Assembly (NCBI GenBank): GCA_965215275.1
Contig: OZ244044.1
Span: 1,280,001-1,344,000, forward strand
Source: Thermodesulfobacteriota bacterium
GTDB taxonomy: Bacteria; Desulfobacterota_D; UBA1144; Nemesobacterales; JAJCZQ01
DNA: 64,000 bases
Reading direction: 5' to 3'
In this document: in pieces, positions 14,082 through 15,431 of the stretch
How the letters are laid out: every line of letters begins with the position of its first letter
Numbering within the stretch: the stretch's first letter is position 1
Made by a program: the position numbers and the translations under genes
The notes under the pieces: generated by a model
The model's database searches: none
Told to the model about the DNA's origin: nothing
Seen by the model: only the letters and a program-made list of their open reading frames with translations

Positions 14082-15431
14082 CTACCGGTTTTCCCAGACA
14101 AAAATGTGTTCTTTCTGGTCTTCCATTACCTCAACTGTCGAATGAAAATCAGTGTCGTCTGCTGTGCCTCCTGCATCATCCGTAAAGAACATACCGTCAC
14201 TGTTAAATTCTTCCTCTGCTGCTTCTGCCTCCGCCTCTAACAAGACTCCAGCAGCCGTTTTGACCCTGCTTCTAATTCCTTCAAGTTCTATACCATCGGC
14301 AGCATTAGTGTTATTTTCATCCAGATAAATCCCTGCACCTACTATAAATCGTCTGTAGTTCCTTGGGTCGTAAGGAACACGTGAATCAGGAACATCAACA
14401 CTATTAATGTTACCAGATATCCTGAAATAACTGAGTTTAGGTGGATTATTCAAAGTATCAGGTTCGTTAAGCTTTGGAGCCGTGTATACACTCCAGACAC
14501 CTTCCTCTACCTTGTCAGGATTGACTCCTTCTGGATTGAACCTTAGATCAGCAATTACACCTGTTACTGGAAATAGCTCATCTACTGCTTCTTTTATATA
14601 CGCCCTTCCAGAATCATCCGTAGCTCCGTAAATATCATCCCCTTCATGTGCATCCGTAGTCCTGAAGTCATCTTTTGTAACTGAACTGGCTGGATGACAT
14701 GAGACGTTTACTGAATTTATTACTGATACTGTAGATATTATTGTTATATCACCACCAGGCTCTGTTCTTGTTACACGTTCATTGATTGATTCCTCTTTTT
14801 CTATCTCTGCTATAAACAGGTAAAGTTCCCCATTTTCACTGTTTATACCAGATAGTCTTTCTATATCGTCTGGAGCAGAATGTGTACCACAAATAGTCTC
14901 AATTGCTTCATTAACCTCGGTATGGGAATAATCATGGACAATATCGTCTATACGGTCTGTAGCCTCATCAACCAGTTTTTGCAGATTTTCAATTCTGGCG
15001 TCAGTATGAGGGTTATCACCAAGACAGATCCCTGCCCCTACAAAACGATAAGCATTTTCTGCCGCTCTTTCCAGGTACGAAACCTTATAGGCTCCATCAC
15101 AATCCGTAGAATCATCAGCAGGATCAGTAACACCACCATCAGCGTCAAGATCAGACGTCCATCTATAGGCAGCCCAACCTGAATTGCCTGTAGACAGGAC
15201 ATCCCTGAATTTGTCAAAGATACGTACACCTTCTTTGCCGTATTCCGGCAACTCTGTTACATCTCTTTCCTCAGTTAAATCACCTTCACTACCGTCAGAT
15301 TGAGGATTAGGATGGAAAATCAGCCAACTGTTTCTTGGTATTGCTTCACCTTGTACGCCACCGTCGTCATCATCACATGAAACGGTAAAAAACAAGGTAA
15401 ACATCAACAACAGAACGAAAATCTTTTTCAT
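14082..15431 (-). CDS. Acidic lipoprotein with tandem Cache_2-like domains (copy 1)
   Basis: Signal peptide with lipobox FTVSC; Cache-like motifs HP, D..G..IKE, SGWAAYRW, KVSY/KLSY, VGAGI(C/Y)L occur twice. Confidence 0.75.
   Translation of the reverse strand: MKKIFVLLLMFTLFFTVSCDDDDGGVQGEAIPRNSWLIFHPNPQSDGSEGDLTEERDVTELPEYGKEGVRIFDKFRDVLSTGNSGWAAYRWTSDLDADGGVTDPADDSTDCDGAYKVSYLERAAENAYRFVGAGICLGDNPHTDARIENLQKLVDEATDRIDDIVHDYSHTEVNEAIETICGTHSAPDDIERLSGINSENGELYLFIAEIEKEESINERVTRTEPGGDITIISTVSVINSVNVSCHPASSVTKDDFRTTDAHEGDDIYGATDDSGRAYIKEAVDELFPVTGVIADLRFNPEGVNPDKVEEGVWSVYTAPKLNEPDTLNNPPKLSYFRISGNINSVDVPDSRVPYDPRNYRRFIVGAGIYLDENNTNAADGIELEGIRSRVKTAAGVLLEAEAEAAEEEFNSDGMFFTDDAGGTADDTDFHSTVEVMEDQKEHIFVWENR

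Follow-up and report, generated by a model that had tools for sequence, protein, structure and literature searches.

Cache domains are described, in the available text of PMC4822843, as the commonest extracellular sensors of prokaryotes; the same text describes dCache_2 (PF08269) as a duplication of sCache_2, and applies the term 'circular permutation' to Cache versus PAS in DcuS and CitA. The accessible part of PMC5062169 reports that PscD binds carboxylates via Y90, H103, Y143 and K156 between W92 and W145. According to the accessible part of PMC12415202, this residue set is conserved in other short-chain-acid sensors, where a His at the H103 position goes with pyruvate-type ligands over lactate. 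Outside the Cache world, potato type II proteinase inhibitors contain, as the text available from PMC2259423 has it, a 'bracelet' domain, i.e. a single non-contiguous domain formed by segments from the N- and C-termini and closing the chain. Our literature search, drawn mostly from main texts of journals open without subscription, found no published report of a permuted, ring-closed Cache layout.

The gene described here lies in the window, by which we mean the whole 64,000-nucleotide stretch of DNA that was analysed. It is an intact open reading frame on the minus strand, with no internal stop, and its 449-residue product is referred to as P0001. The original prediction had taken it for a stand-alone lipoprotein with two Cache domains in permuted order. 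Its features are as follows (amino acids are numbered on P0001).

15437..15449, minus strand: ribosome-binding site, GGA then a run of 10 G (sequence comparison of the copies)
14082..15431, minus strand: P0001 gene, assigned as a permuted double-sCache_2 lipoprotein of 449 aa (open reading frame and family search)
15375..15431, minus strand: signal peptide with lipobox-like TVS-C19, aa 1-19 (sole hydrophobic segment; putative lipidation)
15018..15329, minus strand: module A, N-terminal half, beta2(HP)-alpha-beta3-beta4-beta5, aa 35-138 (profile match)
15000..15023, minus strand: linker from beta5 of A to alpha1 of B, aa 137-144 (profile and alignment comparison)
14319..14999, minus strand: module B, complete, alpha1-alpha2-beta1...beta5, aa 145-371 (model compared with 4K08 and 5G4Y)
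14286..14324, minus strand: linker from beta5 of B to alpha1 of A, aa 370-382, homologous to the linker from beta5 of A to alpha1 of B (profile and alignment)
14085..14285, minus strand: C-terminal piece of module A, alpha1-alpha2-beta1, aa 383-449, ending at the beta1 strand (profile match)
13968..14014, minus strand: likely terminator, a stable hairpin then a T run (-28.8 kcal/mol, z -7.5, 0 of 200 shuffles)
P0001 motifs: TVSC 16-19; WLIFHP 36-41; SGWAAYRW 84-91; KVSY 116-119; FVGAGICL 130-137
P0001 motifs: ELYLF 202-206; CHP 245-247; DDSGRAYIKE 272-281; GVWSVY 311-316; PKLSY 331-335; IVGAGIYL 363-370
P0001 motifs: RVKTAA 389-394; AEEEFN 405-410; HIFVW 442-446

The motifs are those quoted in the original prediction, and all of them are present in the order that it gave. 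The hairpin has a counterpart downstream of all six paralogs present in the source genome (see below); a simple promoter/terminator scan missed it, calling no terminator, and found three promoter-like sites versus 6.8 expected. Rfam gave no match over 13400-21700, and no RNA sequencing run carrying the gene is listed. Contigs from other sequencing studies cover the stop codon (X5, no differences over 13700-14221; X6, seven differences over 13700-14333); none of those listed spans the whole gene.

The family is small and rare. A search with P0001 returned 23 proteins from 7995 candidates scored, and a profile search of 1.84 billion representatives gave 15 matches, namely 11 family members or fragments and four weak canonical dCache_2 proteins. 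The working alignment comprises 27 sequences, with three short fragments and the four canonical proteins left out. Within the phylum, four of 120 genomes matched; one (G078) was dropped as a carrier, its match (E 1.8e-4) lying in the signal region only, which leaves the source genome and two others, one sharing its genus and one its family. One further member resides in a Dehalococcoidia genome, in whose family two of 101 genomes matched; the other of these two (G184) was also dropped, its match being a 55-aa frame covering profile positions 3-46. None of the 88 pattern matches in a metagenome scan was confirmed as family. The ESM Atlas returned only sCache_2 and dCache_2 clusters (0.95-0.96), the top one of which (334 aa, 70 members) may contain further permuted proteins.

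P0001 is an exported, likely lipid-anchored protein. As judged from pattern, the lipoprotein claim stands: TVS-C19 follows a hydrophobic stretch. The lipobox Cys is found in 22 of the 27 aligned members (the exceptions are P0025 and four members whose starts are incomplete or differ). P0001 had also been credited with large acidic loop insertions, a description that is only partly right. D and E make up 21.7% of the insertions relative to the most compact member, but also 21.6% of the mature chain (pI 4.2), so that the whole mature protein is acidic; moreover, the largest insertion (about 210-240) is modelled by AlphaFold as an extended beta-hairpin, not as a loop.

The order of the modules was established by profile-profile comparison. 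The canonical profile was built, with family members excluded, from 13 units of five sCache_2 proteins that occur in the same order and are neither permuted nor joined to an output. Positions 5-46 of the canonical unit were matched by the C-terminal piece of the family (94.1%, E 1e-7), and positions 49-130 by its N-terminal half (97.2%, E 4e-11); because these matches are complementary and do not overlap, they point to a cut at the beta1-beta2 turn. Within the family profile, the middle unit was matched at its C-half by the N-terminal half (98.4%, E 5e-15), and at its N-part together with the linker by the C-terminal piece (95.7%, E 1e-8). This likeness is beyond chance; the C-terminal piece gave only 0.1% and 0.3% against the two C-halves. 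The N-part of the middle unit scored only 4.3% against canonical units. Taken as a whole, the chain reads as a clean tandem of two beta2...beta5-linker-alpha1-alpha2-beta1 repeats (99.1%, E 1e-18), with the contiguous alpha1-alpha2-beta1-beta2...beta5 order present in module B and broken in module A. Placing the C-terminal piece before the N-terminal half raised the score against the canonical profile over that of the native order in 25 of 25 members (P0026, 51.0 versus 25.6 bits; the window protein, weakly, 7.0 versus 2.3), and the C-terminal piece alone scored above all 100 shuffles in just 12 of the 25. Finally, the chain ends on a beta1-type strand in all 27 aligned members, versus none of 45 canonical-type Cache open reading frames from related loci.

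Neither P0001 nor its window paralog P0002 matched the Pfam Cache models, both being below the curated cut-off of sCache_2 PF17200 (25 bits), and Pfam together with NCBIfam gave no Cache match for P0001. Similarly, the PDB searched with the P0001 sequence yielded chance matches only, the family profile reaching 5G4Y at E 0.36. Since P0001 alone is without a Pfam Cache match, its Cache identity is drawn from compact relatives and from structure. The compact members (330-356 aa) do exceed the Pfam cut-offs for sCache_2 or dCache_2: their PF17200 scores are 29.5 bits for P0018, 29.8 for P0019, 32.7 for the protein of G018, 30.8 for P0025 and 34.2 for P0026 (in a first screen of relatives, two of 17 proteins, P0018 and P0019, were above the cut-off). 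Their first sCache_2 match begins at about position 63-65 of the 155-position model, and dCache_2 PF08269 (298 positions) matches compact relatives, at up to 62.6 bits, in two separate, out-of-order partial stretches. The profile comparisons, the Pfam matches of the compact relatives and the fold searches described next agree on the permuted two-Cache architecture originally predicted, and module A is almost certainly cut at the beta1-beta2 turn, with one half at either end of the chain.

AlphaFold modelled P0001 with a pLDDT of 66.0 and a pTM of 0.73, and the compact P0025 with 76.7 and 0.78; these values come from shallow alignments (23 and 27 rows), and AlphaFold may lean to a familiar fold. 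Residues 133-371 of the P0001 model aligned to 4K08 (Adeh_3718) with Z 14.3 and an rmsd of 2.6 Å (138 of 144 residues), and the middle module to 5G4Y (PscD) with Z 13.5, while the P0025 model reached Z 15.6 with each of these structures. 4K08 and 4EXO came top among 48,161 chains in the fold search; Foldseek, run on the first P0001 model, returned nothing at E <= 0.001, its best row being 4K08 at 2e-3. The structure aligner is in practice sequential, so the split module A is covered by no row, which is not counter-evidence. The anticipated Cache fold is therefore seen, and the models show module B as a whole sCache_2 fold.

Only beta1 can pair with beta2 in the Cache fold, beta2 lying at the edge of the sheet. 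The secondary-structure output of both models assigns paired strands to the N-terminal beta2 and to the final seven residues. As the beta1 of the middle module is already used, this leaves the C-terminal strand as the partner of the N-terminal beta2. The C-terminal alpha1-alpha2-beta1 is predicted from the models to complete the N-terminal half within the same chain. The molecule would then very probably be a closed two-domain ring, in which the beta5 of each module is looped by a homologous linker into the alpha1 of the other.

We also considered a different topology, in which each repeat folds as a permuted single domain or chains swap their terminal piece into oligomers; the permutation would stay, and the ring would go. 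The clean tandem of two repeats with homologous linkers would suit it, sequence alone being unable to separate the arrangements, and so would the insertions of up to about 30 residues that the repeat junction takes. However, the middle module is whole in both models, and the Tyr-to-His spacing across the repeat junction is 15-16 residues in compact members versus 13 in PscD, as for a hairpin. Furthermore, 26 of the 27 members have both C181 (in alpha2 of B) and C245 (in beta2 of B), and in the remaining one both are lost. This co-loss fits a disulfide inside a self-contained module B and argues against two self-contained permuted domains, between which the two Cys would be split, with no Cys at the matching position 39. 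The other pair, C111 and C136 in the N-terminal half of module A, is absent as a pair from P0025 and P0026. The different topology is consequently improbable in our view.

The pocket positions were mapped by motif spacing and by alignment to 5G4Y rather than by residue-level superposition. In P0001, the N-terminal half of module A (Cys pair 111/136) contributes H40, F72, Y89, W91 and K116, and the C-terminal piece H442 (Tyr in 23 of 27 aligned members), F444 and W446, so that the residues of pocket A come from both chain ends; pocket B is formed by Y204, F206, H246, Y316, A318 and K332 (Cys pair 181/245). Across the family, the PscD-type positions of module A are occupied by Y (23/27), F (26/27), H (21/25), Y (26/26), W (23/26) and K (26/26), and those of module B by Y (26/27), F (27/27), H (27/27), Y (19/27, with H in 7), F (14/27, with A in 9 and V in 3) and K (27/27). 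The family consensus thus keeps all four polar residues in both pockets. P0001 itself reads H/F/H/Y/W/K in A and Y/F/H/Y/A/K in B, departing from the PscD motif by a His at the Y90 position in pocket A and an Ala at the W145 position in pocket B. The two predicted pockets probably bind small carboxylic acids, although with less assurance than attaches to the ring; for the family, we infer ligands of the acetate, pyruvate or propionate type. Because of the His at the first Tyr of A and the Ala at the second aromatic of B, the ligand of P0001 may differ from acetate and pyruvate.

Unpermuted stand-alone sCache_2 proteins of one, two and four units occur in the same order, where PF17200 matches were found in 41 of the 120 genomes, i.e. 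stand-alone Cache proteins are common there. In one genus of the order (g19; loci L022-L043), exported, unpermuted two-unit sCache_2 proteins without output are expanded (31 of 36 genomes match, with up to 13 matches per genome), many of them with a C-terminal hydrophobic anchor, which in some follows a GGC motif. In the Dehalococcoidia family of the genome G120 (loci L079-L091), stand-alone sCache_2 arrays reach 1742 aa. Two stand-alone Cache genes of relatives (L016:864-2616 and L040:701-1824) are each split over two frames, by a frameshift or an assembly error.

The family profile aligns across the unit junction of the natural four-unit proteins, so that trimming of a tandem array gives the permuted order directly. 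A tree was built from 70 beta2-beta5 halves (88 columns), drawn from 11 of the 27 family members and from some of the canonical units. Modules A and B each form one group in it, sisters to each other at 98/95 support and apart from the receptor dCache_2 modules sampled. This sister grouping fits self-duplication of one unit, within the limit set by the few columns. We infer that a single stand-alone sCache_2 unit duplicated itself and that the product was trimmed at the same turn on both ends, which gave the permuted order.

The source genome (2 Mb) has six copies of the gene, a point that the original prediction had missed, versus one in each of the two relatives. The single copy of both relatives, and one of the six here, sits between thrS and infC, which the comparison of loci indicates is the ancestral site. 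Other copies are flanked by decayed pieces of the thrS-infC locus, which argues that the extra copies arose by segmental duplication. The nearest copy lies in the window itself.

19939..21351, minus strand: P0002, paralog of 470 aa, 74% identical to P0001, same permuted order, 4.5 kb away (open reading frame and alignment)
13627..14288, minus strand: tract of 662 nt nearly identical between the P0001 and P0002 copies, with 4 differences, spanning the C-terminal piece in full plus about 450 nt downstream (nucleotide alignment)

A relic of the doxX 5' end is visible upstream of the P0002 copy (about 21560-21690), which shows that the block 13500-15800 was duplicated. P0002 sits between the CHAD and ParA-like genes of a plus-strand group that also includes a CYTH gene (17837-22915), as if inserted into a former cluster. 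The hairpin at 13968-14014 has a 15-nt centre that is inverted in both window copies relative to three paralogs (G000 C1:71728, 94042 and 1427330), likely by a hairpin-mediated micro-inversion; the downstream repeat was considered as an integron attC site and dropped, its arms being in the wrong order. The G run of the ribosome-binding site (9-10 G) varies in length between copies (15437-15449, upstream of window position 21351, and G000 C1:94042), and slippage there could tune translation of the copies.

The tract 13627..14288 likely reflects recent gene conversion. Block mosaics were detected in six of seven paralog triplets at no more than 2 of 2000 shuffles (the seventh at 36); P0003, for example, resembles P0001 through the core and has the C-terminal block of another paralog, with Tyr where P0001 has His. 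Over the 297 codons of the core, dN/dS is 0.42-0.67, with 15 of 15 paralog pairs below 1. Outside the core it ranges from 0.42 to 1.61, mostly near or above 1, values that are alignment-sensitive and have no genome baseline. When 1432 open frames of at least 150 aa are ranked by acidity, the top six include five of the six copies. All six frames are intact and their insertions keep the frame, and close counterparts (P0003-P0006) exist in other assemblies.

The main rival to a capture function (see below) is that of a variable surface protein: a disulfide-locked Cache ring would display changing acidic insertions to a host, a matrix or phages, its pockets binding a carboxylate on a larger target or being vestigial. 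The amplification to six copies in a 2-Mb genome, the mosaics, the non-core dN/dS, the acidity and the fact that the gene stayed intact while its flanking passengers decayed all speak for it. We nevertheless hold it to be unlikely, since the pocket Lys, Tyr and His are nearly invariant across two phyla and single-copy compact relatives (353-356 aa) share the ring but carry no large insertions; besides, the non-core dN/dS comes from an uncertain alignment, and surface exposure and a host-associated life would have to be presumed. The high dN/dS, the altered pocket residues of P0001 and the duplicated blocks with decayed neighbours would also suit a scenario in which one ancestral copy works and the extra ones, including P0001, drift as by-products of repeated segmental duplication. 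This is very unlikely given six intact frames with in-frame insertions, a core dN/dS below 1 in every pair and counterparts persisting in other assemblies.

Mosaicism and pocket architecture could be linked in a more speculative way, which we deem rather unlikely, somewhat more so than the variable surface protein. Pocket A would act as a latch in a ring-closed single-chain sensor pair, the ligand, once bound, holding the C-terminal strand against the N-terminal half. Half of pocket A would be exchanged between paralogs through gene conversion of the 3' block (Tyr in P0003, His in P0001), giving a recombining repertoire of carboxylate-binding lipoproteins in a signalling-poor bacterium.

P0001 does not have the receptor-type layout of an MCP, histidine kinase or cyclase, in which a sensor flanked by transmembrane (TM) helices is joined to an output domain. 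Indeed, the claim that it lacks a signalling output is borne out: a hydrophobicity check found no TM helix beyond the signal peptide, and no longer fused relative appeared among the 1.84 billion representatives, save the four weak canonical receptors, or, as a weak negative, among candidates of 824-2350 aa. The lipoprotein might instead bind its ligand and signal to a separate membrane kinase or chemoreceptor. One kinase of the source genome is a membrane protein, with two TM helices, and sCache_2 is, in the available text of PMC4822843, mostly a sensor of chemoreceptors and kinases. Several findings make such an accessory sensor highly improbable, slightly more so even than drifting paralogs. 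MCPsignal, HAMP and GGDEF have no match in the source genome, which is 99.87% complete. It has only two HisKA kinases, one of which is soluble; the TM helices of the other are about 5 residues apart, which leaves it almost no outer surface. The Dehalococcoidia carrier has no HisKA match, and no signalling gene is next to any of the six copies, whose neighbours share no function. For comparison, a genome of the same family that does not have the lipoprotein (G020) has 14 HisKA matches versus these two. The window neighbours (MFS, DoxX, a CNT nucleoside carrier, CHAD, ParA-like, CYTH and alanine dehydrogenase) were set aside as partners, as they differ at the other four copies and at the orthologs. 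Elsewhere in the source genome, an open frame on the minus strand (G000 C1:845132-848941) holds what we take to be a GyrB-like sequence after about 400 residues of presumably TPR-like repeats, as a fusion or as two abutting genes.

The reading we favour, with a probability of roughly 45%, is that of a tethered protein with two pockets that capture small carboxylic acids, the protein acting in trans with an unlinked carrier. The exported, likely lipid-anchored two-module ring would bind small carboxylic acids in its two pockets and hold the acid at the membrane for that carrier; the six paralogs would differ in ligand preference, their pocket residues varying and being exchanged by gene conversion. 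Hand-over of the acid to the carrier is the more tentative part, which we judge somewhat less likely than not. This capture role has a precedent by context, since an NCS2-type permease (matching PF00860 at E 1e-28) adjoins five of the 13 Dehalococcoidia loci with unpermuted arrays that were fetched. It is weakened by the lack of a linked partner carrier: the ancestral site is thrS-infC, PF00860 has no match in any of four carrier genomes (one of which, G018, is only 80% complete), DctM (TRAP) none in the five genomes searched, and SSF carriers, present in five of five genomes searched, are unlinked to the lipoprotein gene. In the source genome, blastp, tblastn and HMM searches likewise gave no match to an NCS2-type permease. 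The core dN/dS also counts against capture, being high for a substrate-binding protein, and so do the departures of the P0001 pockets from the PscD motif.

The family, kept by selection across two phyla, shows where a Cache fold opens (the beta1-beta2 turn) and how its native ends join; biosensor design, which seeks a new opening beside the pocket, can make direct use of this. Among bacteria it is a clean example of permutation that came about by duplication. It also enlarges the growing set of output-less Cache proteins found in genomes with almost no transmembrane signalling, and raises the question of their role. The scope of these points is that of a small family from uncultured organisms, with a putative ligand and partner.

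The fold, the pocket and stand-alone Cache proteins were known already; the permuted and, as modelled, ring-closed order is what the literature search did not turn up. The sCache_2 sensors of PF17200 (PscD, 5G4Y/5G4Z; Adeh_3718, 4K08; Vibrio parahaemolyticus, 2QHK/4EXO; Helicobacter pylori TlpB, 3UB6) resemble the middle module in fold (Z 12.7-15.6 for the first three), and most of their carboxylate-pocket residues are common to both modules of the permuted family. They consist, however, of a single contiguous domain between two TM helices of a receptor, whereas the family has two modules, one of them split, without TM stalk or output and with added disulfide-like Cys pairs and long insertions. 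dCache_2 likewise has two sCache_2-derived modules per chain, and the compact relatives exceed its Pfam cut-off, but its order is collinear, while in the family the order is permuted and the modules are sisters of each other. The unpermuted stand-alone sCache_2 arrays are exported and output-less and have short linkers, as in the permuted family; by contrast, they start at alpha1 and end at beta5 (none of 45 on beta1), whereas the permuted family ends on beta1, and some of them lie beside an NCS2-type permease, which carriers of the permuted form do not have. By analogy, the bracelet domain of the potato type II inhibitors appears to be the nearest architectural precedent found for the ring. 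As far as the available text on these inhibitors goes, they share repeats that are out of register with the domains and a Cys scaffold bearing fast-evolving sites, in an unrelated, proteolytically processed plant fold, so that the likeness is one of architecture only.
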